Assembly: GCF_003790525.1 (NCBI RefSeq)
Contig: NZ_CP033635.1
Reading direction: 5' to 3' (one strand)
DNA length: 64,000 nucleotides
From: Escherichia coli
GTDB taxonomy: Bacteria > Pseudomonadota > Gammaproteobacteria > Enterobacterales > Enterobacteriaceae
Positions 26,317-59,765 of the stretch are shown piece by piece. The position numbers and the translations under genes were made by a program. How positions within the stretch are numbered: position 1 is the first letter of the stretch; each line of letters begins with the position of its first letter. Below the pieces are notes generated by a model. It made no database searches, was not told where the DNA came from, and saw only the letters and a list, made by a program, of their open reading frames with translations.

Positions 26317-27789
26317 ATGGTACCTGTGGTCGCGCTTGTCGGGCGCCCTAACGTAGGAAAATCCACGTTATTTAACCGTCTAACTCGCACCCGAGATGCG
26401 CTGGTTGCGGATTTCCCGGGTCTGACTCGTGACCGTAAGTACGGTCGTGCGGAAATTGAAGGCCGTGAGTTTATCTGCATTGATACCGGCGGGATTGATG
26501 GCACAGAAGACGGTGTAGAAACCCGCATGGCGGAACAGTCGCTGCTGGCGATTGAAGAAGCGGACGTCGTACTGTTTATGGTGGATGCGCGCGCGGGCCT
26601 GATGCCGGCGGATGAAGCGATTGCTAAACATCTGCGCTCCCGTGAAAAACCGACCTTCCTGGTGGCAAACAAAACTGACGGTCTGGATCCCGATCAGGCA
26701 GTGGTTGATTTCTACTCGCTTGGTTTAGGTGAAATCTACCCGATCGCCGCGTCTCACGGTCGTGGCGTATTAAGTCTGCTGGAGCACGTGCTGCTGCCGT
26801 GGATGGAAGATCTCGCACCGCAAGAAGAAGTCGACGAAGACGCCGAATACTGGGCGCAATTTGAAGCGGAAGAGAACGGCGAAGAAGAAGAGGAAGACGA
26901 CTTCGACCCGCAAAGTCTGCCGATCAAACTGGCGATTGTGGGTCGTCCGAACGTCGGTAAGTCTACACTCACTAACCGTATTCTTGGTGAAGAGCGCGTT
27001 GTTGTTTACGACATGCCTGGCACGACGCGTGACAGTATCTACATTCCAATGGAACGCGACGGACGTGAGTATGTGCTCATTGACACCGCTGGCGTACGTA
27101 AACGCGGCAAAATCACCGATGCGGTAGAGAAGTTCTCGGTAATCAAAACGTTGCAGGCCATTGAAGATGCCAACGTGGTGATGTTGGTGATTGATGCGCG
27201 TGAAGGTATTTCCGATCAGGATCTCTCCTTGCTGGGCTTTATTCTCAATAGTGGGCGCTCACTTGTGATTGTAGTGAACAAGTGGGACGGCCTGAGCCAG
27301 GAAGTGAAAGAGCAGGTGAAAGAGACGCTGGACTTCCGTCTGGGCTTTATCGATTTTGCTCGTGTGCACTTTATCTCTGCCTTGCACGGCAGTGGTGTTG
27401 GTAACTTGTTTGAATCAGTACGTGAAGCGTATGACAGCTCCACCCGTCGTGTGGGGACCTCTATGCTGACGCGCATCATGACGATGGCTGTTGAAGATCA
27501 CCAACCGCCGCTGGTACGCGGTCGTCGAGTGAAGCTGAAATATGCCCACGCCGGGGGTTATAACCCGCCGATTGTGGTGATTCACGGTAATCAGGTGAAA
27601 GACCTGCCTGATTCCTACAAGCGTTACCTGATGAACTACTTCCGCAAATCGCTGGACGTAATGGGATCGCCGATTCGTATTCAGTTCAAAGAAGGGGAAA
27701 ACCCGTATGCGAACAAGCGTAATACCCTGACGCCGACTCAGATGCGCAAGCGTAAGCGTCTGATGAAGCACATCAAGAAAAGTAAGTAA
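26317..27789 (+). CDS. der: GTPase Der (EngA)
   Basis: Start at [16 protein letters not shown] (ATG 26317), 490 aa, two GTPase domains (GRPNVGKS twice). Confidence 0.93.
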
Positions 27790-27851
27790 TCACTTATCTG
27801 GTTTCCCTTTCCACACGGAGAGGGAAACCGAATAACACGCGAGGAGTATTT

Positions 27852-28067
27852 ATGGCACTCAACTGTCCAACCTGCAAAACCCCTCTCGAACGCAATGGCG
27901 GGACTGCTCACTGTGCAACTTGTGCCAAAGATTTCACCATTCAGGCTCTTTGTCCTGACTGCCACCAGCCATTGCAGGTATTAAAAGCATGCGGTGCGGT
28001 GGATTATTTCTGCCAATATGGGCACGGTTTAATTTCTAAAACACGCGTTGAATTTGTTATTGTGTAA
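27852..28067 (+). CDS. yfgJ: YfgJ, small zinc-ribbon protein
   Basis: 71-aa ORF with two CxxC pairs (CPTC, CATC, CPDC). Confidence 0.8.
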   Translation: MALNCPTCKTPLERNGGTAHCATCAKDFTIQALCPDCHQPLQVLKACGAVDYFCQYGHGLISKTRVEFVIV

Positions 28068-28276
28068 TATCATTTAAATATATGATTTTATCATTCATAT
28101 TTATAATATGGATGATTATGCCATTTTTGTATTAGTTGAATTACTAATATGAGTGGAAAAAATCACTTATTTAAAAAATAATGATATATTTATCCTTTCT
28201 GGCATGCCTTTCTGAATAATCAGGGATACAATATTAAAGCTTATTTTTGACTTTATCATTGTCACAGGAAAAGTGC

Positions 28277-30451
28277 ATGCTGCGATGGACACGCTGTATT
28301 ATGCTAACATTTATCTCTGGGGCTGCTTTTGCGGCTCCAGAGATAAATGTTGAGCATAAAGAATCATTACCTGATTTAGGTAGTCAGGCCGCACAACAAG
28401 AAGAACAAACCAACAAGGGGAAATCGCTAAAAGAGCGTGGTGCCGATTACGTCATTAACTCCGCTACGCAAGGGTTTGAAAACCTGACACCCGAGGCGCT
28501 GGAGTCCCAGGCCAGAAGCTATCTGCAAAGTCAAATTACCTCTACGACACAATCTTATATTGAGGATACACTCTCCCCCTACGGTAAGGTTCGAACGAAT
28601 CTTTCTCTTGGCCAGGGCGGCGATCTGGATGGCAGTTCCATCGACTATTTTGTTCCCTGGTATGATAATCAAACTACTGTTTATTTCAGCCAATTTTCTG
28701 CACAACGAAAAGAAGATCGTACGATCGGGAATATTGGGCTTGGTGTAAGACATAATTTTGATAAATGGTTGTTGGGTGGAAATATATTTTATGATTATGA
28801 TTTTACCCGTGGGCATCGCCGTTTAGGTTTAGGTGTCGAAGCGTGGACTGATTATTTAAAATTCTCTGGCAACTATTATCACCCGCTTTCTGACTGGAAA
28901 GACTCCGAAGATTTCGATTTTTATGAGGAGCGTCCTGCGCGCGGCTGGGATATTCGCGCCGAAGCCTGGCTTCCCGCTTATCCGCAGCTTGGTGGTAAAA
29001 TTGTTTTCGAACAGTATTACGGTAATGAAGTCGCGCTTTTTGGCACTGATAATCTGGAGAAAGATCCCTTCGCTGTCACGCTGGGTGTGAAATACCAGCC
29101 CGTTCCGCTCATTGCTGTCGGTACAGATTTCAAAGCTGGCACTGGCGATAATACCGATCTTTCTGTTAACGCAACGCTTAATTATCAGTTTGGCGTCCCG
29201 CTCAAAGACCAGCTTGATCCTGACAAAGTGAGCGCTGCTCACTCGCTTATGGGCAGCCGTCATGACTTTGTTGAACGTAACAACTTTATTGTTCTGGAAT
29301 ACAAAGAAAAAGATCCCCTCGACGTCACTTTGTGGCTGAAAGCCGACGCCACGAATGAACATCCCGAGTGCGTGATTAAAGATACGCCTGAAGAAGCTAT
29401 CGGGCTGGAAAAATGTAAATGGACCATTAACGCGCTCATTAACCATCACTACAAAATCGTCGCTGCCTCCTGGCAGGCGAAAAACAATGCTGCACGTACG
29501 CTGGTGATGCCGGTTATCAAAGAAAACACGCTTACCGAAGGTAACAACAACCACTGGAATCTGGTGCTGCCTGCCTGGCAGTACAGTTCTGATAAAGCCG
29601 AACAAGAAAAACTCAATACCTGGCGGGTTCGTCTGGCGCTGGAAGATGAAAAAGGTAATCGACAGAATTCCGGCGTGGTGGAAATCACCGTTCAGCAGGA
29701 TCGCAAAATTGAGCTCATCGTTAACAACATCGCCGATGTACCAGATGAGAACAATCACAGTCATGAAGCCAGCGCACAGGCCGATGGTGTAGATGGTGTG
29801 GTGATGGATCTCGATATTACTGATAGCTTTGGCGACAACACTGACCGCAACGGTAATGTCTTGCCGCAGGATAATCTCAACCCGCAGTTGTTTGACGCCA
29901 ACGATAAAAAAGTGACGCTGACGAATAAACCCTGCACTACCGAGACTCCCTGTGTCTTTATCGCCAAACAAGATAAAGAAAAGGGGACCGTTACGCTCTC
30001 CAGTACATTGCCTGGCACCTTCCGTTGGAAGGCGAAAGCCGCTCCCTATGATGACAGTAACTATGTTGACGTAACGTTCCTGGGTTCTGACATCGGCGGG
30101 CTGAATGCCTTTATCTATCGTGTTGGTGCGGCTAAGCCCGTGAATCTTATCGGCAATAAAGAGCCGTTGCCTCTCAATAGCAGCTATCGCTTTGTGTTGT
30201 GGCGTGACGCTAACAAAGACGGCGTGTTCCAGCTATCAGAGAAATTCACTGAAGAGGAGATGAAACAGTATGACTATCAGTGGGAATTCACGGGACATAG
30301 CGTGAATGGCAATACCGGTGCGCAAGCCAATACCACTAACGCCGATATAGAGATCCCGGCAACGAACAAGGACGCGGCAACGAAGTTTAGTGCCCAGGTA
30401 ACCGATGGCGTGCAGGGATACGGTTTGCAGGTCAATTACAGCAAGAAATAG
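28277..30451 (+). CDS. sinH: Intimin/invasin-like inverse autotransporter (SinH-like)
   Basis: Signal peptide MLRWTRCIMLTFISGAAFA; intimin-type beta-barrel motifs (KWLLGGNIFYDYDF, ERPARGWDIRAEAWLPAYPQLGG); AGGA RBS before ATG 28277. Confidence 0.78.
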   Translation: MLRWTRCIMLTFISGAAFAAPEINVEHKESLPDLGSQAAQQEEQTNKGKSLKERGADYVINSATQGFENLTPEALESQARSYLQSQITSTTQSYIEDTLSPYGKVRTNLSLGQGGDLDGSSIDYFVPWYDNQTTVYFSQFSAQRKEDRTIGNIGLGVRHNFDKWLLGGNIFYDYDFTRGHRRLGLGVEAWTDYLKFSGNYYHPLSDWKDSEDFDFYEERPARGWDIRAEAWLPAYPQLGGKIVFEQYYGNEVALFGTDNLEKDPFAVTLGVKYQPVPLIAVGTDFKAGTGDNTDLSVNATLNYQFGVPLKDQLDPDKVSAAHSLMGSRHDFVERNNFIVLEYKEKDPLDVTLWLKADATNEHPECVIKDTPEEAIGLEKCKWTINALINHHYKIVAASWQAKNNAARTLVMPVIKENTLTEGNNNHWNLVLPAWQYSSDKAEQEKLNTWRVRLALEDEKGNRQNSGVVEITVQQDRKIELIVNNIADVPDENNHSHEASAQADGVDGVVMDLDITDSFGDNTDRNGNVLPQDNLNPQLFDANDKKVTLTNKPCTTETPCVFIAKQDKEKGTVTLSSTLPGTFRWKAKAAPYDDSNYVDVTFLGSDIGGLNAFIYRVGAAKPVNLIGNKEPLPLNSSYRFVLWRDANKDGVFQLSEKFTEEEMKQYDYQWEFTGHSVNGNTGAQANTTNADIEIPATNKDAATKFSAQVTDGVQGYGLQVNYSKK

Positions 30452-30506: not shown

Positions 30507-31499
30507 ATGAAACCTCATATGAAACGTGGCCTGACAAGAGTCGCGCTGGCACTGATGCTGGCTGGATACTGTGCCGTGCCAGCCGCTATGGCGGAAGATG
30601 CCGCCTGGGTAGCCAGTGGGACGACCGCTGAATTCGAAGGGACCATACCCTGGCTTTATCGCGAGGGTGGGAATGCCACGATTAACTCGGATGATGCGGA
30701 TCACATCAAAGTAACGTCTGATGGTAAAGGTACTCGTCCTTCAGGTAGCGAGACGGATAAACGCCTTTACTCAGGAGATACCATCACGTTGGGGTGGGAT
30801 ATCGGCGATACCGAAGGGGATATCGACGATGGTCCAGACGGTATTGATGCGAAAACGACAGCCACTATCAAATGGTACAGTTACAGCGATAATGCGGGTG
30901 GCGGTAAAACGGAGCTGACCGCAGCGGCAGGCAAGACGAGTTATAAACTCACTGATGACGAACGTGGGCGTTATATCGGTGTTGAAATCCAGCCCATCAC
31001 CCAGACCGGTAATCCTTTCCAGGGAACATCGCTGACTCTGCTGGATATTTCAACGGCCAGCGGTGGCGGCAGCGATACGGATAATGTTGATCCTGGCCCG
31101 GTTGTGAACCAGAACCTGAAAGTTGCCATCTTCGAGAAAGGCACCAGTACCAACCTTATCGGTGGTAATACAGCCATTGCGCTTAACAAAACGTATGTGG
31201 CCAAACTGTACTCGGATGAAAACCAGAATGGTAAGTACGATGCGGGTACGGATGTGGACGTTACCGCTAACTACGACTTTGCGTGGGTCTTTAACGGTAA
31301 CAGTAAACAACTTGCGGCGGCGGGCGGTATTGCCAACGCCAGCTTCGATAACAATGACATTGTTATTCCGCAAACTAACGAACAAGCAAGAACCAGCCTT
31401 AACGGTAGTGACCGTAATGGTAAGACCGGCCTTGCAATCCCGGCAAACGGCGACGGCGTTCAGGGCTATACGCTGTCTATCATTTACAAACACCACTAA
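30507..31499 (+). CDS. sinI: Secreted protein, SinI-like
   Basis: Signal peptide MKPHMKRGLTRVALALMLAGYCAVPAAMA; C-terminal DGVQGY motif shared with the sinH-like product. Confidence 0.55.
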   Translation: MKPHMKRGLTRVALALMLAGYCAVPAAMAEDAAWVASGTTAEFEGTIPWLYREGGNATINSDDADHIKVTSDGKGTRPSGSETDKRLYSGDTITLGWDIGDTEGDIDDGPDGIDAKTTATIKWYSYSDNAGGGKTELTAAAGKTSYKLTDDERGRYIGVEIQPITQTGNPFQGTSLTLLDISTASGGGSDTDNVDPGPVVNQNLKVAIFEKGTSTNLIGGNTAIALNKTYVAKLYSDENQNGKYDAGTDVDVTANYDFAWVFNGNSKQLAAAGGIANASFDNNDIVIPQTNEQARTSLNGSDRNGKTGLAIPANGDGVQGYTLSIIYKHH

Positions 31500-31608
31500 T
31501 GCGCACAACAGCATTCCCGTATGGGAATGCTGTTTTCCGCCTGTTTTGCTTAGCGACGCGTTAAGCAAAACGGGTTGACGTTTTGTTTATCATGCTGGAG
31601 TTTTCTAC

Positions 31609-34600
31609 ATGTCGGTATGTCTGAAACCAGGAAAAATCATTGTGCTTCTGGGCATGTTGGCAGCCTTTATGCTGTCTGACTTTGCACGGGCAGGAGTGGA
31701 ATGGCAGACATATCCTGGTTCTACAGGCGAGTTTAACGGTACAGTTCCTATTGCCGATAGCGCTAGCGTACCCGTTTATCAGGGAAGCGTTCAGCTTGAT
31801 CCTGCTGCATCTCATGATGTGGCGTTTTCTGCTAAACCGAATGAATTTAGCGTTGACGATGACGCTGCTAACCTGATAGTCGCTAATCCTCAGGACAGTG
31901 AAGGCGACCAGTTTTCCACACCACCTGCGCTGCGCTGGGAAAACCAGACGCCGCCGACCGTCAGTCTGGTGTGGGCGGATGCCGCCACGCCGGATACGCC
32001 GCTCAACCCGCAGCCCATCGCCAACCGCAGCTTTTGCGCGCAAGGTCTGGCCGGGCGTTCGCTGGTGGCCTGGCCGCAGATAGATACACAACAAACCATT
32101 CCACTGCTTTACCTGCTGACCTCGACCGGTTATCCCTATGAGGGGACGGTGGCGCTGGCTGAACAGAAAGTGACGCTGAACATCGCGCCCGCACAGGGCG
32201 ATTTAATTTCGGTGAGCGCCAGTGGTTATAACGAAACGATCGCGGCGGCAAAAACCACCGTTGGTGGCACTATCACGCTGACCGTCACCACCAAAGATTG
32301 TCAGGGCAACGTCGCGGGTAATATTCCGTTTATTATCAAACGTAAAGATGCCCAAAACCGTCAGGGCGCGGTGAATAATACCGCGCCGGTGGTGCTGGGG
32401 AGTACCGAGTTAACGACGACGGCAACCGAGTATCGTGGCACATCGGATGCCAACGGTACGGCAACCATCACGGTGACCCAACCTAACGGCCCCGGCGTCA
32501 AAACGCCGCTGGTGGCGAGTATTTCCGGCATTGCGCAAACCAGCGAAACGGCGGTGATTTTTACCGTACTTACCAGCCCGGACGTGGCGCAGGCCACGAT
32601 GTGGGGCCATATGGCGGAAACGGTTGAGGCACACGGCTACACGTTCAGCAGGCCAAAACTGGCGGCGGAAGTCAGCAATGAAAATGCCACGGTCGTCGAT
32701 CACAACGAAACCTGGTCCACTTTCACCTGGAGCGGGGCAGACAGCCATTGCACCGTGCTGCCGGGCATGCGCCATTTCGGCGCACTGGCGACGGTGATTC
32801 CCTCCACGGTACAGACTGTCCTTGGCTGGCCGATGCAGGATGATTATTACTGGACATCGCTGGCGGGCACTACCGGGCAGCACCATGCAGCGGATGTCTC
32901 TAACCGTGCTGAAGCGCAAAAGCCGGATAGCACCACGTTTCTTGTAAGCTGCGTGGACAAACCCGCGCCTGACGTCGAACCGAAAATCGTCCTTACGCCA
33001 GAAAACTATGATGATACGGCACAGGCGATGAAAGCGAAGGTGGGTGAGGATGCCACGATGCGTCTGACGATCACCGACAATAAAAACAACGATCAACCGC
33101 TGGCGTATTATTACTTCTCGCTGCATCTGGATGACGGCGTTAACCGTAAGAATCAAACCGACTCCGCCTGGGAAGCCCATCCGGTGCAGATTACTGGCGG
33201 CAGTAATTTTCGCCAGGTCGACGCACATACCTATGAAGGCATGACCGACGCCAACGGCCAGGCTTCGCTCACCCTGAGCCAGCCCGGCGGCGCGGGGGTG
33301 AAAACCCATATCACGGCGAAAATGCGCAGCGATTTTAACGCCACGGATGCCAAAGATGTGATTTTTACCGTAATCACCAGCCCGGACAGCGACAAAGCGC
33401 GGATGTGGGGCCATATGCGCGGCATTATTGAGTCCGGCAGTCTGTATAAACGCCCGTTGCTGGCGGATGAAACCGAGCATGAACTGGGAACAGTGCGGGA
33501 AAACAACGAAGACTGGGCGTTGTACGATCAAAACACCAGTATGCAGGCGGAATGCGGGGTGGGTCATATACCGCGTCAGAGCTCACTGGAAAGCCTGTTT
33601 TCAGCCCATCCCGGTAACGCGATTGGCACTGAGTATGGCTGGCCTACCGCACAACAGAGCTACCTAAGCGCGGTGGAGCAAGAAACGCATTCATCGGTGA
33701 ATCTGGGGAACGGGAGCGTCGACAGCTATTCCGGCTTTAAGCAGAATTACCTCTCCTGTTCGGGTAATGAGATGGTAGCGAATGTTGAAGTCAGCACCGA
33801 TCATGATGTGTCTGTTGGCACCCAAGCGCAAGCCAAAGTGGGTGACACCATCGTAATGACCGTGCGTACGATTAACGCGCTAAATAATTCCCCGGTACCC
33901 TTTAGCGCATTCACCATTACCAAAGGTATGGGATATAACCGAGCGGGACAGGTGAGCGGGTTTGATGACCCGAGTAGCGGCTCAATCACGATGGATAACT
34001 CGCAATATGGTACATCACAGCCATCGATGGTTTATGCGGGAACAACCGATGTCCGGGGCGTGGCGACGGTCGAGATTAAGCAACCACAGGGCGTCGGGCT
34101 AAAAACGGTGCTGAGCGTAACACCGGTAAATTCCTACCTGCCGAATACCGTTAACTACAGCGTTATTTTTACTACCCCAACCAGCCCGGACGTTTCCGGC
34201 GCGCAGATGTGGGGCCATATGGATGAAACGATTACCGTTGATTCATCAACCTTTACCCGGCCTAGGCTGGCGGCGGAAATCGCCAGCCCGGACGGAACCC
34301 TGACTGAAAATAACGAAATCTGGGCGCGCGTGAGCCAGGCCAATACGTCCAGTACCAGCAAAGGCGGCTGCGGCACCAATATGCTGCCGCGTCGCTCCCA
34401 GCTAAGCGCGTTGTATAGCGCCAACAGTGGTAATGCAGTGCAAACGACGCACGGCTGGCCAACGCAGCGTCAGCCCTACTGGAGCAGCTCTCCGGCGGAT
34501 GTGACGCCGCACTTTTTCACGATAGCGCTGAACGATGGCGCACAAGCTATCGGCGGCGATACGCCGGTTTACGTCAGTTGCCTGACGACGGCGAACAAAC

Positions 34601-37600
34601 CTGCCAGCAGCATTACGCTGGAGGTGGTTGATAAAGCGCAATGGAATGCCGGGAATAACGCGGCAACGCTGAAAAAAGGCGAAACGCTACAGGTTAAGGT
34701 GACGGTAAAAGATGCACAGGGCAACGCGTTAGCGGATATGCCATTTACCCTCAGTCGCGGTGATGGCTATACCCGTAGCGGCGAAAAACATATTGCCGGT
34801 AGCGGCGATGCGCTGGTGGCGCCGGTGGTGGTCAATGGCGGGCTGGCCGATGAAACAACGTTGAATGACACCGCAACGGTGTATACCGCCATGACCGGCA
34901 GTGACGGCAGCAAAATTCTTAATATTACCCGTCCGGATACCCACGGCACCAAAACGGCGCTGACGGCAACGCTTTACTCCGATGCGACGAAAAAAGACAG
35001 CCTGGACACGATCTTTACGGTGGTTACCAGCCCGGATAGCAGCCAGGCGAAAATGTGGGGGCATATGCCGGAAACGGTGACGGCTGAGGACGGTACGGTC
35101 TTTAAACGCCCGCGGTTACTGAAGGAACTGAGCAGTCAGACTGGGCGAACATCAACGCTTGAAGACAACGAAAACTGGGCGTTGTTTAACATTAATTATG
35201 CGAGCTCTTCCACGACGTATAGTGGCTGTGGAACCAACTATATTCCGACTCAGGCCGGTCTGACGTCACTGTTTGCTAATAATGCGGGCAACACCATGAA
35301 AACCGTGCAGGGCTGGCCGGTGGCAACGCGCTATTTGTCCAACACGTCCGACAATGGCAGCATGGAGCAGCGTAACTACAAGGCGGTCGATCTCAGCAAT
35401 GGCACGAGTGCGGCAGTGTCATCAACGGCGCTGCAACTGCTGACCTGTCAGACTACACCGGTAACCACGGTGAGCCAAATCCTGCTGGAAGCGGCAGATC
35501 CGGCGACGCTGGATACCACCTATAACGTGGTAAAAGCGAAAAAAGGCGAAGAATCCGTGGTGCGCGTCACCACCAAAGATGCACAAGGCAACCTGGTGGG
35601 CAATACGGCATTTATCCTGACGCGTGCCAACAGCGTGAGTCGGGCTAATGCATCAGCGACGATGAGCGTGGGCTCGTTGACGGTGACGGATGCCTGGGGC
35701 AATACGCGAAATAATTTCCAGTCGACAAGTGAAACCATTTACGGCGTGACCGGTGCCGACGGGTCAACGACATTGACCCTGAAACAGGATAACAGTACCG
35801 GGTTAAGAACCGATCTCACGGCAAAACTGGATACGTCCAGCAGCGTCAAGGCAACGCTACCGGTGGTCTTTACCGTCGTGACCAGCCCGGATTCGCCAAA
35901 AGCGAATTTTTGGGGACATATGGCCGAAACGGTGGCGGCCTCCGATGGTTCAGTCTATAAACGCCCACTGTTGCTGGCAGAGCTGGCCAACACTGGCGGG
36001 CGACAAATCAGTTCAGAGAACGGGGAAAGCTGGGTACGATTCACCTGGAATCAGTCGACAGATCCTTCTGTAAGCGGCTGCGGCGTTGCGTATATGCCAA
36101 CGTTGGCAGGCCTGCAAGCGTTGTATGACGCTAATAGTGGTAATGCAATGAGTACGGTACAGGGATGGCCGGTAAAAGCGACCTATCTCACCAATACCCC
36201 AAGTGACACGCAAACGGGGAGCCGTTACTACAATGTGGTGCAACTGGATTCTGGCGCAGCCTCGCAAATCACGACGAACACGGGTGTACTGCAAACCTGC
36301 CGTACAACGCCGTTGACGGCTGCCAGCCAGATTACGCTGGAGGCCGCGGATCCTGCGCAATTTGTCAGCATTGACAGCACGCTTAGCGCTGTCAAAGTGC
36401 AGAAAGGCGATAGCGTGCCGATCCGCATTTCGACTAAAGATGCGCAGGGCAATTTCGTCGGCAATACGCCGTTTGCCCTGAAACACGCGAACTCGATCAA
36501 TCGTCAAAATGTGTCGTCATCGCAGAAAGTGTCGGTCACGACGGAGGTGGGTACGACGGTGGATACCAGTGCAACAACCACCCTGTATGGCGTAACCGGG
36601 CCAGACGGAACCACCACGATGACGCTCCGACAGGATGCGTCCACCGGGTTAAGAACCGACTTTTATGCCCTGTTGAACGATACCGGCGTGTCGTCGGACA
36701 CCTTGCCGGTGATCTTTACCGTCATCACCAGCCCGGATACGCCGCTGGCGGCCAACTGGGGCCATATGGCGGAAACCTTTACCAGTAGCGAAGGCGTCAC
36801 CTTCAAGCGGCCTTCCCTCAAAGCTGAACTCTCTGGCGGTACGGCCATAACGGTCAATAATGAAGTCTGGTCGCGCCTGACAGCGGCGGAGAAAGTGGAT
36901 GCCAGCAAGGCCGGGTGTGATGAGACGTATCAACCGCTGGTGAATGACATGCAGGGGTTGTATGCGGATTACCCTAACGGCCAGTTAGGATCGGTGCTCG
37001 GCTTGCCGACGTCTGCCGGGTATTGGTGGGCCTACGACATGATGATGGTTTCTGGCAACTGGACTAATCAGGCATTTTCACCTGTTAATGGTCAGTTGAT
37101 GCAGGCATCGTCCAGCTATACGGCGATCGTGATGTGTCTGGTAGAACCACATACGGAAGCAGCCACAATAGAGCTTACTTCAACGGCGCAGGACGCAGCA
37201 AAATCGGCCAGTAATGGTGGACGACCGAGCGCCGTAGCGAAGAAAGGCGAGACGATTCCGTTGACGGTGACCGTGCGTGATAGCGCCGGGAACCCGATGC
37301 CATATGCTGAGTTTACCCTCACGCGTGAAACGACGCTGGATCGCTCGAAAGCAACCGTTAACACGAGTGCGGACGACCTTACCGTAACGGCATTGGTACC
37401 CGCGAATACAAATAGTGTGTTGGCAGCAAGTGGAGCAAAACTGATCGGCACGACGGGCAGCGATGGCAAAGCGACCTTTGAGGTGAGTCAGAATGCGACG
37501 ACCGGGCTGGCGACGCCGTTAACCGTGACGCTGGCGCGTGATACGACGAAAGCCGCCACGCTGGATGTTATCTATACGGTGATCACCAGCCCGGATTCGC

Positions 37601-39684
37601 CGAGTGCGAAATTCTGGGGGCATATGCCGGACACCTTTACCAGCTCGACGGGCGTCACCTTCAAACGACCGCTGCTGAAAGCAGAAACCAGCTCAGGCTC
37701 ATCGATTAGCTCTAACGGCGAAGTTTGGTCATATATGAGCAACGCGCAAAATTTAACATCGACAGATTGCCCGCTCGAAAATCAACCGCGCAGTAATGAG
37801 CTGTTGGATTTGTATAGTGATCACCCGAACGGCACGCTAATGACCGACCTGGGGTTACCCGTATATGCAGGTAACTGGTGGGCCTATGATATGGTCATGC
37901 TGAGTGGAACGTCGTGGACTTATCAACTCATCAGCCTGAAAGACGGAACCATTACGCAGAAGGGGACAACCAGTGCGTTGATGCTTTGCCTGGCACAGCC
38001 GCATCCGGCCGGCGTCAGCGTAACATTGACGTCATCCGCACAGGATGACGCCAGAACCACCAGCAATGGCGGCCGTCCCAGCGCGTCAGCGAAAAAAGGT
38101 AACTCAATACCGATTGTGGTAACGGTAAAAGATCGTGATGGCAACCCGTTGGCGGGCGAAGCGGTGACGCTCAAACGTGATTCAGCGTTGAGCCGTTCAG
38201 GAACAATCGTGGGGACGCCAGCGAATGAAATAAAGTTGACGGAACTGACGCCCGTGTCGGCGACATTCCCGCTGGTTTCAAATGGTACACAATGGCTTGG
38301 TTTCACCGGTAGCGATGGTACGGCGACATTCAATGTTGAACAGCCTGATACTGTCGGCCTGGCAATCCCCTTTAACGCCATCCTGGCCCGTGACACGGCA
38401 AAGGTATCTACTCTGGATCTGATTTTTACCGTCCTCACCAGCCCGGATGCCGCATTAGCAACTTACTGGGGCCATATGCCGGATACCGTCACGGCGGAAA
38501 ACGGTGCTGTCTTTGAGCGCCCTAAACTGTGGAAAGAGCTGCCGTCGACATCCGGGGTAAGTCAGATAACGAATAGCAATGAAGCCTGGCCAGTGTTTAA
38601 CGCAACGCAGAGGGCTGACAGCAATCTCAGCCCTTGTGAAGCGGCGCGTCGACCATTGAGCGATGATTTAGAAGCGCTCTATACACGTTATCCAGGAAAC
38701 ACGATTACCGCGCAAATTGGCTGGCCTACGCAGTATGCATGGTGGGCGGTGGATAACTGGGAAGGGGGCAGTAATCCGCAGGCCGTCAGCCTGGTAAATG
38801 GTTCGAGAGGCCAATATAATCCCGCTCATCAGGCCTGCCTGGTTAACCCGCGTGCGAGCGTTTCCAGCGTCACGCTGACATCAACGGCGCTGGATGACGC
38901 CACACAGGCGGCGACGGTGAAAAAAGGCGACGCCGCGCCCATTGTCGTTACCGTAAAAGACAGCGCCGGGAAGCCGGTGCCGAATATCGCTTTTATCCTA
39001 AAACGCGGTGAGGCCGTGCCGCGTAACAGCGGGGCGACGCTGTATGGCGATGTGGATGCGATGGACGATTTGACTGTGCAACCTTCATCCGGTGCGGCAG
39101 TCACGTTGGCTGACAGTGGAAATACCATCGACGGAGTCACGGGAGCGGACGGTACGGCAAGCTTTACCGTTCGTCAGGATAATACGCCAGGATATAAAAC
39201 GCCGTTGACGGTGACGCTGACGGATAACGCCACCATAACGGCGACGCTGGACACGATTTTCACCGTGCCGACCAGCCCGAATGTCGCCACGGCGTATTTC
39301 TGGGGTCATATGGCGGATACCGCCACGGTAAGTGGCAAGACGCTGCATCGCCCGCTATTAAAATCGGAGTTGCCGTCAGGCGCTACCGCAGCAGCAACGC
39401 CTGATGTAAATAATGAAACCTGGGCACTGGCGCATGTTATGGATTCCTCTAAATGGGATGTCGCGCAGCAGTGTGGCAGTATGAATAACGTGCCGAGCAG
39501 TGCCGAATTACAAACATTACACTCCGGCTTTAGCACATTGGGATGGCCGTCCTCGATAAGCTTCCCGTATTTATCTACTGATAAGGCTGGGTCGTTCTAT
39601 TGTGGTGTTGATGAAGGCTCTGGCAGTCTCAACTGTGGCATTCAGCCTGCGAAAACGCCGGGGTTTGCAACCTGCTTCCAGTAA
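31609..39684 (+). CDS. ratA: Giant repeat-containing surface protein, RatA-like (2691 aa)
   Basis: Single ORF with signal peptide and nine ~270-aa repeats each carrying VIFTVxTSPD...WGHM; position next to sinI matches Salmonella ratA. Confidence 0.7.
32280..39684 (+). repeat. Nine tandem in-frame coding repeats of about 0.80-0.86 kb inside the ratA-like gene
   Basis: ACCAGCCCGGA(C/T) recurs at about 32572, 33380, 34183, 35028, 35885, 36731, 37585, 38443, 39271. Confidence 0.8.
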
Positions 39685-39737
39685 CCTTATCCACCTTGTC
39701 AATATGAGGTTCCGAAAGCCTGATACGCAACGCGCTA

Positions 39738-41135
<1,398 letters not shown>

Positions 41136-44571: not shown

Positions 44572-45822
44572 GTGCTTACCGATACAAAATTAAAGAACCT
44601 CAAGCCACAGGACAAACTGTACAAAGTTTCCGATCGTGACGGGCTGTATGTAGCTGTGCTTACGTCAGGTACGGTCTCGTTTCGCTATGACTACCGTATC
44701 AACGGTCGCCGCGAAACACTGGTAATCGGGCAGTATGGGCGTGACGGTATCAGCCTGGCAGAAGCGCGAGAAGAACTGATTGCTGCAAAGAAGCTGCTTA
44801 AAGCAGGCCAGTCGCCGGCTGCGGCTAAACGTGACGGTATCAAAAAGATTCGTGGTGCCGAGACGTTTGCGGTACATACCGACAGTTATATGAAACACGT
44901 CATCCTGGCTGAAAGTACCCGCGCAATGAAGCAGGCAGTGATCGACCGTGACATACTTCCTGTTCTTGGCAACAAAATGATGACTGAAATTACCACATCG
45001 ATGGTTCGTGATTTGTGTGACCGGATTGTCGAACGCGGTGGTCGGGCAACAGCAGTACAGGCCAGGGAGATCATTAGCAGCGTATACCGTCACGCCAATG
45101 ACCGTGGTCATGGTTTGTTTAATCCTGCGGCTGACATTAAACCTTCGTCTATCGCCATATTTAAACCACGAGAGCGAACACTGACACCAGAAGAAATTGG
45201 TCTGTTCTTCCGCACGCTGGATGCCATTGGTGCTATGGGCACTATGAAAATGGCTTTAAAGCTGGTGCTTATCACTATGGTTCGTAAAGGCGAATTCACC
45301 AATGCAACGTGGGACGAAATAGATTTTAAAAAATGGACATGGACAATTCCTTCAGACCGCATGAAGGGAAGCCGGGCGCACGTTATTTACCTGCCAAAAC
45401 AGGCACAGGATATATTGGTTGGGTTGCAGATGTGCGCTGGTGGAAGTGAATATCTGGTTCCTGGTCGTTACAATTTCCGGAAGCCATTATCTAATGCCGC
45501 ACTGAACTCTCTGATCGACAGAACGGTGAAAATAATAAATGAAGATGGTGAGCATATTCAGGGCTTCACCGTACACGATATGCGCCGTACAGCCAGTACG
45601 TTGTTGCATGAGGCTGGTTATCCTTCAGACTGGATTGAAAAGGCTCTGGCACATGAGCAGAAAGGTGTGCGCGCCGTATATAACAAAGCGGAATACGCCA
45701 GACAGCGCGCCTACATGTTGCAGCAGTGGGCCGATATGATTGATTCCTGGATTAACGGGGAGCATACGGATCTAATTCCGTTCTCCCCGTCGAAGTTTGA
45801 GAAGTGGATGGCGGGGGAATAA
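44572..45822 (+). CDS. Tyrosine-type phage integrase (P4-like family)
   Basis: 416-aa ORF MLTDTKLKNLKPQDKLYKVSDRDGLYVAV..., C-terminal HDMRRTASTLL and catalytic-region motifs; GTG start. Confidence 0.85.
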   Translation: MLTDTKLKNLKPQDKLYKVSDRDGLYVAVLTSGTVSFRYDYRINGRRETLVIGQYGRDGISLAEAREELIAAKKLLKAGQSPAAAKRDGIKKIRGAETFAVHTDSYMKHVILAESTRAMKQAVIDRDILPVLGNKMMTEITTSMVRDLCDRIVERGGRATAVQAREIISSVYRHANDRGHGLFNPAADIKPSSIAIFKPRERTLTPEEIGLFFRTLDAIGAMGTMKMALKLVLITMVRKGEFTNATWDEIDFKKWTWTIPSDRMKGSRAHVIYLPKQAQDILVGLQMCAGGSEYLVPGRYNFRKPLSNAALNSLIDRTVKIINEDGEHIQGFTVHDMRRTASTLLHEAGYPSDWIEKALAHEQKGVRAVYNKAEYARQRAYMLQQWADMIDSWINGEHTDLIPFSPSKFEKWMAGE

Positions 45823-45825
45823 CGT

Positions 45826-46020
45826 TTAATAGTTCTGCTGATTTTCTTCCATCTCTGCTTCTGCTGCCAGTGATTCAATTTTGTTTTCGAATATTGCTGA
45901 CAGTGTTGCAAATTCAGCATCAGTGACAGCGGGAATTGGAACAAACCTGATCCCGCTGTGTGCAAGCATGTTTGCAGTTTCAAGGCATTTTCTTAAATCT
46001 GCTGGTGATGCCCTGTTCAT
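45826..46020 (-). CDS. Hypothetical small acidic protein
   Basis: Internal Met of ORF 45826..46140 positioned right after methylase stop; weak support. Confidence 0.2.
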   Translation of the reverse strand: MNRASPADLRKCLETANMLAHSGIRFVPIPAVTDAEFATLSAIFENKIESLAAEAEMEENQQNY

Positions 46021-51812: not shown

Positions 51813-52560
51813 GTACGATCGCTTACGTGAGCATGGTGTTGCTGTGCATGAAGAGCGGCGTGACAGCAATGGCAAAAAGGAGCAGGTCGCTAGAATTTTC
51901 AATGAACTATTTGTCCAGTTACAGGCTGCATTTCCCGCAAGCGTTTCGACCATAAGGGAGCAGAACAAACTTAATGAATTCCGTAAGCAATGGATGCTTG
52001 CGTTTCTGGAGAATGGGATCACAACAATGGAACAGGTTAACGCTGGTATGCGCCACGCCCGCGCCAGTGAGTCTCCGTTCTGGCCGTCGCCAGGGCAATT
52101 TATCAAGTGGTGTAAAGACAGCAAGATGGTTCTTGGCGTCACCATTGACGATGTGATGGCGGAGTTTCACCGGTACAGCAAGGAAAAAAGTTTATATCCT
52201 GGTGGTCCCGAAAGATTCCCGTGGCGGCATCCGGTTATGTACTGGGTCGTATGTGATACCCGCCGTGCAATGTATCAGCGCCAGCTTAGCGAGATTGAAG
52301 TTGAGAAACACGCGCGCAGGCTGCTCGATGATTGGGCGAAAAAGGTGGCTTCCGGGCAGCAGATACCCGATCCGGTGATCAGCATACAGGCAAAGCCAGA
52401 ACCCATGAGTACGCCTCCGGACACAGGGAGAGACGTTTACCACCCGCCAGGGCGAAGTTTCGGGTGCATGCCTAACGCCGCCACCCTTGGGGGAATAACA
52501 CCGGCTCAGTGGCTGATGGAGGAATACAGGCGGGGAAAGGCGGCAGGATTTATCAAGTAA
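51784..52560 (+). CDS. Replication protein P-like (DnaB helicase loader)
   Basis: 258-aa ORF with ENGITTMEQVNAGMRHAR and PSPGQF, matching lambda P as recalled. Confidence 0.75.
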   Translation: MKSTPELLNEYDRLREHGVAVHEERRDSNGKKEQVARIFNELFVQLQAAFPASVSTIREQNKLNEFRKQWMLAFLENGITTMEQVNAGMRHARASESPFWPSPGQFIKWCKDSKMVLGVTIDDVMAEFHRYSKEKSLYPGGPERFPWRHPVMYWVVCDTRRAMYQRQLSEIEVEKHARRLLDDWAKKVASGQQIPDPVISIQAKPEPMSTPPDTGRDVYHPPGRSFGCMPNAATLGGITPAQWLMEEYRRGKAAGFIK

Positions 52561-58950: not shown

Positions 58951-59765
58951 TCTTTATTTTTATCCTCGAAACCTGATAATCCAGATAGAACACCAAAGTT
59001 ATTAAAAACGTTTGGCTTACCAGATTTTAATCCGGATAAGTTGTGTTGCTCCAAAAAGTTACTAATTGTTTGGCCGTTGCCAAGTGCAAGGCTTTTTATT
59101 TGAGATTTTTCAGGGTATTTGAGTTTGTATTCGTCGAAATCATTTTGGAGGGTCTTATATGCCTCATTCATTCTTCCAAGAGTTTCCGATATCTCTTTTA
59201 ATGAATGATTTAGAGCTGCTAACTGAGCACTGGCGGATCTCAATTCGTCATCTTTAGCTTTCAACTCGGCAGTCAATTCACCCATACTATTCTTTGATCG
59301 AATAATCTCTTCTTTCATCTCTTGGATGTCTTTTTCCGCGCCAGTCTTAACTTTGTCGTATGTAACATCTTTTTTAGCCAATAACCTCTGCAGTCTTGTT
59401 TCACGCTGGATTTTTCTTGCCTTCAGGTGATTTTCGATTGAGTCATTATTATCAAGAGGCTTTGCTTGCCATACGTTAATGATATTGTTTACCCATGGTA
59501 ATAGGCAGCAGATAGCAATTACAGATAAGCATGGATAAAACATAACAGTTTTCCATGTGCTGTTATCTGAGATATATGAAATTTTATCTATTATGTTTGA
59601 TTTGCTAAAAAATAGATAAAGAATTGATTTCCAGTTGAAGGCGCACCAGGACATAACAAAAGCACCAAGCACAGGGTTTTTGGCTCGATTCACGGCAGTA
59701 TTGGCAGTAGATAAAAACAGCTCTTTGAACGATTCAAACATGCTAATTACCTTGAAGTTTTTCAT
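58947..59765 (-). CDS. AT-rich moron: membrane protein with coiled-coil C-terminal region
   Basis: Start inferred at MKNFKVISMF; two hydrophobic segments then Lys/Glu-rich heptad-like region; opposite strand to structural genes. Confidence 0.55.
   Translation of the reverse strand: MKNFKVISMFESFKELFLSTANTAVNRAKNPVLGAFVMSWCAFNWKSILYLFFSKSNIIDKISYISDNSTWKTVMFYPCLSVIAICCLLPWVNNIINVWQAKPLDNNDSIENHLKARKIQRETRLQRLLAKKDVTYDKVKTGAEKDIQEMKEEIIRSKNSMGELTAELKAKDDELRSASAQLAALNHSLKEISETLGRMNEAYKTLQNDFDEYKLKYPEKSQIKSLALGNGQTISNFLEQHNLSGLKSGKPNVFNNFGVLSGLSGFEDKNKD

Follow-up and report, generated by a model that had tools for sequence, protein, structure and literature searches.

The sinH locus of Escherichia coli raises the question of how the gene for an intimin-like adhesin is kept silent, and whether the short AT-rich stretch in front of it is a promoter held down by the nucleoid protein H-NS. 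In the 64,000-nucleotide stretch of DNA analyzed here (the window), der is followed by a yfgJ-like zinc-ribbon gene, sinH, a sinI-like gene, a gene for a 2691-aa BIg21 adhesin, and xseA on the opposite strand. Positions 28068 to 28276 are the entire 209-bp spacer between the end of the yfgJ-like open reading frame (28067) and the annotated ATG of sinH (28277). This very promoter has been studied in strain SMS-3-5 under the name iatB (Goh et al. 2019, mSphere; PMC6714894), and the locus is the same, the window being 100% identical over 27790-28400 to SMS-3-5 (phylogroup F), as it is to another 74 complete genomes. Spacer composition, H-NS binding, the start site, and cis-elements are not part of that study (PMC6714894) and are added here from ChIP data and comparison.

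The original prediction had described about 200 bp of strongly A/T-rich DNA before sinH, and this is borne out, with a GC content of 0.239 against 0.519 for the window and with the AT-rich DNA falling on the exact spacer coordinates. No other spot in the 64 kb is as low in GC; only 0.07% of 209-bp windows reach this value, all of them overlapping the spacer, and the next-lowest region (59405-59656) has a minimum GC of 0.30. The 17 other intergenic spacers of at least 40 bp in the annotated 40 kb have GC contents of 0.30 to 0.55, leaving the sinH spacer as the outlier of the 18. Uninterrupted A/T runs of at least six bases cover 100 of the 209 spacer bases, TpA steps occur at 0.129 per base versus 0.043 in the window (3-fold), and the example string quoted in the original prediction has a single occurrence, at 28077-28111. 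The 50-bp GC profile shows that the AT-rich tract starts near 28025, within yfgJ and approximately 40 bp short of its 3' end, and stops sharply at the sinH start codon. A periodicity test for A-tracts phased at 10 to 11 bp in the spacer found none. The high-affinity nucleation motifs of H-NS we take to be TCGATAAATT and TCGATATATT, and we regard them as an auxiliary and not a strictly defining feature. There are 0 matches to TCGATAAATT at two or fewer mismatches in 28068-28276, and TCGATATATT has one 2-mismatch match in the spacer (28181-28190), with total matches at chance level and no enrichment.

Occupancy by H-NS and StpA has been profiled by ChIP-seq in UPEC CFT073 (Hustmyer et al. 2022; PMC9765446), whose spacer is the orthologue of that in the window (same position, 208 bp, GC 0.245, 83% identity). 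The original prediction had proposed consulting H-NS ChIP data for a relative of this strain, and enrichment is indeed seen at the orthologous CFT073 locus. The values for sinH (H-NS, 0.116; StpA, 0.100) and for c3032, the 216-bp gene that directly abuts the spacer (H-NS, 0.407; StpA, 0.367), are per-gene averages and not a track over the spacer, and they come from another strain, in which the spacer differs at 17% of positions. The H-NS value for sinH is modestly above the cut-off of the H-NS-bound gene list, set at 0.07 of maximal occupancy, and that for c3032 is the highest at the locus (PMC9765446). We note that c3032 is still scored as bound in both the hns mutant and the hns stpA double mutant, a property of only 98 genes, and that the authors ascribe residual binding in the double mutant to the paralogue Hfp at the highest-affinity sites (PMC9765446). 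The neighbors of this pair in the list are yfgH and yphF, so that none of sinI, the large adhesin gene, xseA, and der counts as H-NS bound in CFT073. The picture is one of a local patch of H-NS occupancy centered on the spacer.

Published expression data for SMS-3-5 point to a gene that is off under laboratory conditions. A chromosomal iatB::lacZ fusion has low activity, and the IatB protein is undetectable in LB or M9 at 28, 37, or 42 °C (PMC6714894). Among ~30,000 Tn5 mutants, 12 had raised iatB expression, all 12 with insertions that drive leuO and 0 with insertions in hns, and overexpression of cloned leuO increased iatB mRNA ~15-fold, with the protein still undetectable (PMC6714894). LeuO is both a co-regulator and an antagonist of H-NS (Fragel et al. 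2019; PMC6698644). Two later papers, both citing Shea et al. 2022, relate at second hand, the one that sinH is up-regulated in human UTI and the other that it is co-transcribed with sinI. The low lacZ activity, the undetectable protein, and the ~15-fold mRNA response to LeuO agree with the claim that the locus is cryptic unless a signal relieves silencing, with sinH being conditionally silent and not constitutive. Because LeuO raises the mRNA and the protein stays undetectable, transcriptional silencing is not the whole story and a further post-transcriptional barrier is implied; a search of the sinH leader for structure hiding the ribosome-binding site gave a fold z of +0.21, with no significant structure. 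The absence of hns insertions from the Tn5 screen is mild evidence against H-NS as the sole brake, and StpA redundancy or poor growth of hns mutants could be the reason for it. The prediction that this is an H-NS-silenced promoter is upheld in part: the AT-richness, the occupancy in CFT073, and the laboratory silence with relief by LeuO speak for it, and the auxiliary nucleation motifs are not enriched.

The portrayal of the locus as a typical horizontally acquired AT-rich island does not hold. GC contents are 0.476 for sinH, 0.518 for sinI, and 0.555 for the adhesin gene, against 0.519 for the window, and this host-like composition fits a pattern in which H-NS binds the island at its promoter end alone. 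A framing as recent foreign DNA fits poorly as well, since the locus is syntenic in related genera and lacks border repeats and annotated mobility genes. Its presence at this fixed site varies, with 1746 of 5426 complete E. coli genomes carrying it; the annotation shows no integrase or tRNA hallmarks at the island, and a search between both borders gave no shared repeats of at least 10 bp. In K-12 the sinH island is absent, the yfgJ and xseA coding regions overlap by 4 bp, and yfgJ has only 67% DNA identity and 66% amino acid identity to the yfgJ-like gene of the window. The adjacency of yfgJ and sinH extends to Salmonella, Citrobacter, Pseudocitrobacter, Superficieibacter, E. albertii, and E. 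whittamii. Across 24 orthologous spacers from five genera, GC contents are 0.22 to 0.34, with flanks of 0.40 to 0.55, and most of the spacer sequence is unalignable between genera. The AT-richness has thus been kept despite sequence divergence, for which selection for the AT-rich state is a better explanation than an unameliorated relic, and the composition looks maintained.

Alignments of 21 and 22 spacer sequences show two conserved islands, an upstream element and a -10 hexamer (Table 1), in a background of ~30% inter-genus identity (median, 0.30). The upstream element has inter-genus identities of 0.75 to 0.85, with an ATTTA that is invariant in 22 of 22 sequences, and Salmonella, Citrobacter, and some Escherichia share the TTTTTAGGAATATATTTAGG form almost unchanged. 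The window carries its most degenerate version, AAATAATGATATATTTATCC, in which the ATTTA core is kept and the left half is lost; more than 3 of 17 positions are off consensus, and a consensus scan of the window misses its own copy. Elsewhere in the 64-kb window, the consensus has one chance-level match only, at 51970. The -10 hexamer is TATAAT in Salmonella, Citrobacter, and ST131 and TAAAAT in Pseudocitrobacter and Superficieibacter, with the T, A, A, and T positions invariant or nearly so among the 22 sequences, and it lies 38 to 66 bp before the ATG in 18 of 21 spacers and likewise in S. enterica. A spacing scan of 21 spacers, and of S. enterica besides, places the element 34 to 35 bp from the -10 in 17 of the 21 and 34 nt from it in S. 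enterica; two sequences have a distance of 23 bp, which is closer by about one helical turn (11 to 12 bp).

Table 1. Features in and around the sinH spacer, in window coordinates
Feature	Coordinates	Strand	Remarks
AT-rich tract, presumed H-NS/StpA binding patch	28025..28276		50-bp GC 0.16-0.32; ChIP-seq of flanking genes in CFT073
yfgJ-like zinc-ribbon gene (c3032 orthologue)	27852..28067	+	Open reading frame and annotation; hypervariable; adjoins AT-rich spacer
Imperfect AT-rich palindrome ATCATTCATATT-TAT-AATATGGATGAT	28090..28117		At aligned ~-180 position of LeuO-core-like sites; 4 mismatches to core
Conserved upstream element ("block 1")	28176..28195	+	Cross-genus consensus TTTTTAGGAATATATTTAGG; about -63 to -44 from predicted start
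Weak candidate -35 hexamer ATGCCT (3/6)	28204..28209	+	17 bp upstream of -10; unconserved across genera
ATAATCAGGGATACAATAT, 2-mismatch match to reconstructed LeuO core	28216..28234		Overlaps -10; local chance 0.077-0.089, not significant alone
Candidate sigma-70 -10 hexamer TACAAT (5/6)	28227..28232	+	TAnAAT pattern conserved; predicted start near 28239
Shine-Dalgarno AGGA, 7 nt before ATG	28266..28269	+	AGGG/AGGA conserved in alignment
sinH (iatB), intimin-like inverse autotransporter under control of the spacer	28277..30451	+	Annotation; homologues with PF11924 IAT_beta
Downstream island genes: sinI-like (30507-31499) and 2691-aa BIg21 adhesin (31609-39684)	30507..39684	+	Annotation

The conserved -10-like hexamer, the Shine-Dalgarno sequence, and the published LeuO response of iatB::lacZ support calling the spacer a promoter, and we note that the TACAAT/ATGCCT pair scores below the 9-of-12 threshold of the promoter scan. 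Transcription is predicted to start at about 28239 with a leader of ~38 nt, which together with the upstream site would have the geometry of an activator-dependent promoter. The match that the promoter scan did report, TGGAAA-17-AATAAT (28154-28182), is weak and unconserved in other genera, with matches fewer than in shuffles, and was set aside. A terminator scan picked out a single terminator-like site, which covers the sinH start on the minus strand, and an Rfam scan of 27000-29500 gave only a meaningless miRNA match (E = 0.68) and no sRNA or riboswitch.

Several factors were considered for the upstream element, including a heteromer of RcsB with an auxiliary partner (e.g., BglJ-RcsB), Lrp, Fur, an UP element, and H-NS nucleation. 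The RcsB homodimer box is TN(G/A)GAN4TC(T/C)NA (PMC7913699), of which the element consensus, TAGGA-ATAT-ATTTA, has the left half-site only and the window allele (TAATGATATATTTA) neither half, and a homodimer site was rejected on these grounds. We suggest tentatively that TTTTTAGGAATATATTTAGG may serve as the operator for a conserved activator or counter-silencer specific to SinH-type inverse autotransporters, a possibility short of an even chance; loss of the left half in the phylogroup F allele of the window could then explain why the response is only 15-fold in mRNA, with no protein.

For LeuO, we reconstructed the core site as a 19-bp 7-5-7 palindrome, ATATTSA-N5-TSAATAT, from the K-12 cas and leuO region sites (ATATTCATACTGTGAATAT and ATATTGATTTGGTGAATAT) following the verbal description in PMC6698644. 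At two or fewer mismatches, the core has three matches in the 64 kb, including the one that overlaps the candidate -10 (Table 1). Citrobacter MGH106 has a perfect site, ATATTCATTTTATGAATAT, a 0-mismatch score reached by 0 of 1000 shuffles, and 2-mismatch sites of several genera align with it, ~180 bp before the ATG. These sites are suggestive, and not conclusive, of a LeuO input that is conserved across the orthologous spacers. The imperfect palindrome that occupies this position in the window was also considered as a terminator hairpin after yfgJ and rejected, its fold being no better than that of shuffles (z = -0.73), and no consensus structure for it was found in 10 Escherichia alleles.

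We consider it probable that sinH (iatB) is regulated from the 209-bp spacer, with a weak sigma-70 promoter in an H-NS-bound AT tract, and that its silence is due mainly to H-NS occupancy; this causal role of H-NS in the strain at hand, the start site, and the role of the conserved element are what we infer. The promoter (TACAAT, a poor -35, and a start at ~28239) would be located inside an ~250-bp tract of ~24% GC that reaches from about -215 to +37. H-NS with StpA would polymerize over the tract, extending for a short distance into yfgJ and into the 5' portion of sinH, and would block productive initiation by RNA polymerase, leaving the adhesin off in the laboratory. Expression of sinH would then need counter-silencing or activation, which LeuO can supply, and a further factor probably acts at the conserved 20-bp element, at its fixed distance of 34 to 35 bp upstream of the -10. 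It is plausible that LeuO and this putative element factor relieve silencing on a host-associated signal.

The main alternative, which we regard as rather unlikely, is that the promoter is limited by activation, with the poor -35 requiring an activator at the upstream element, LeuO as a true activator, or both, and with H-NS being a by-product. The weak and unconserved -35 is in keeping with this, as are the lack of hns insertions among the ~30,000 Tn5 mutants, the LeuO-core-like palindromes in several orthologous spacers (one of them perfect), and the conservation of the element (0.75 to 0.85 identity) at a spacing that is either fixed or about one helical turn closer, which is typical of phase-dependent activators such as BglJ-RcsB. 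It leaves unexplained, however, why 250 bp at ~24% GC are present in every genus, and the occupancy by H-NS and StpA has been measured, in CFT073, and is not hypothetical. Moreover, the left half of the element is lost in the window allele, and the element does not match the RcsB homodimer box. We note that a need for activation is compatible with H-NS silencing and does not exclude it.

Two further explanations would deny the composition of the spacer a specific role. The spacer could be a passive relic, the unameliorated edge of foreign DNA to which H-NS binds incidentally and without a selected regulatory role, and the variable presence of the locus (1746 of 5426 genomes) fits such an origin; we nonetheless consider it improbable, given that the same order and the same extreme spacer composition are found in Salmonella, Citrobacter, Pseudocitrobacter, Superficieibacter, and other Escherichia next to genes of host GC content, that there are conserved motifs inside the spacer, and that integration scars and mobility genes are absent. 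Least probable of all is that the spacer is simply a terminator and a promoter of the usual AT-richness. Intergenic DNA is usually more AT-rich than coding DNA and an AT-rich palindrome does follow yfgJ, but the spacer is an extreme outlier among 18 (0.239 versus 0.30 to 0.55) with the lowest GC in the 64 kb, the hairpin is no better than shuffles and lacks a consensus structure, and occupancy was measured by ChIP in CFT073. Silencing by H-NS, with LeuO and probably a second factor opposing it, is the reading that we prefer.

Silencing of AT-rich adhesin promoters by H-NS is a textbook principle, and fdeC is reported as an H-NS-regulated inverse autotransporter gene of E. coli; it differs from sinH in both locus and promoter. 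The sinH spacer is an ordinary and mostly known case of H-NS/LeuO-controlled adhesin expression for which the key data are already published; this analysis adds only a conserved promoter skeleton and evidence that the AT-richness as such has been kept from genus to genus. In common with bgl, cas, leuO, and yjjQ-bglJ, sinH has an AT-rich regulatory region that H-NS and StpA bind, is off under laboratory conditions, and responds to overexpressed LeuO. It differs from this class in that its H-NS dependence is one that we infer, in that the window has only a weak LeuO core match, with 2 mismatches (P about 0.09), and in that there is no downstream silencer defined at sinH. IS elements insert near the sinH region in some strains, as they do at bgl (PMC9678765).

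The Salmonella locus has the orthologous order der-yfgJ-sinH-sinI-BIg21 adhesin, with a SinH that is 74% identical. This counterpart is known as the CS54 island, with sinH (sivH)-sinI-ratA/ratB between yfgJ and xseA (Kingsley et al. 2003). The Salmonella spacer has TTTTTAGGAATATATTTAGG, followed by TATAAT after 34 nt. The Salmonella spacers are longer (333 to 345 bp in enterica and salamae examples) and of less extreme composition, with GC contents of 0.31 to 0.34 and a GC-rich part beside yfgJ.

The control region of sinH is a compact LeuO-responsive promoter, occupied by H-NS and StpA according to the CFT073 data, and its extreme AT-richness and two short motifs predate the divergence of Escherichia, Salmonella, and Citrobacter. 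What had been described as a cryptic island becomes a testable promoter model with a predicted start, a -10, a putative upstream operator, and alleles that differ between phylogroups F and B2. Since SinH contributes to ExPEC fitness and is a candidate for vaccines, the timing and mode of its expression bear on vaccine efficacy.

Several other features of the locus and its surroundings are of note. An ungapped comparison of a 40.6-kb SMS-3-5 stretch with window positions 7790-48400 gave 3012 mismatches, and the gene coordinates around sinH nonetheless agree; the window is thus probably not from SMS-3-5 itself, or it differs from that stretch by indels away from sinH. The last 600 bp of der are 95 to 99% identical between the window and CFT073, ST131, LHM10-1, D10, and K-12, and yfgJ identity among sinH-positive strains is only 80 to 89%. 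Strain divergence jumps at the der stop codon, such that the variable segment begins before yfgJ, which co-varies with the island. At the right-hand island junction (39685-39748), a GC-rich hairpin followed by a T-run (GCCTGATACGCAACGCGCTATCAGGCTTTTTT) is situated between the adhesin gene and the convergent xseA and is likely a bidirectional terminator. Next in AT-richness within the window are the yfgH-yfgG spacer (45548-45857) and 59405-59656, both with GC contents of about 0.30; yfgG, yfgH, and c3022 are also listed as H-NS-bound genes in CFT073, and there is probably a second H-NS patch ~17 kb downstream of the sinH spacer.

The orthologue set also includes some unusual members. The pig isolate E. 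coli LHM10-1 has the most divergent E. coli spacer allele (73 to 75% identity); among E. coli, its upstream element, TTTTTAGGAATATATTTAGT, comes closest to the cross-genus form, and its sinH is annotated as a pseudogene with an internal stop. Contigs assigned to a "Collinsella sp." MAG (2 kb) and to "Rhizobium wenxiniae" (426 bp) code for SinH proteins 93 to 100% identical to that of the window and are probably E. coli contamination of those assemblies. The spacer and SinH (73% identity) of "Escherichia sp. MOD1-EC7003" group with those of Superficieibacter, with which it has the 23-bp spacing in common, and its genus label looks doubtful for this reason. Two strains have IS1 insertions at the left edge of the AT-rich tract, one in SC516 with a target duplication corresponding to window positions 28041-28050 and one in strain 200164 at about 28110. 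These are independent events, in opposite orientations and on different allele backgrounds, and within 70 bp of each other, and neither disrupts the conserved element or the -10; they recall the IS activation of H-NS-silenced bgl.
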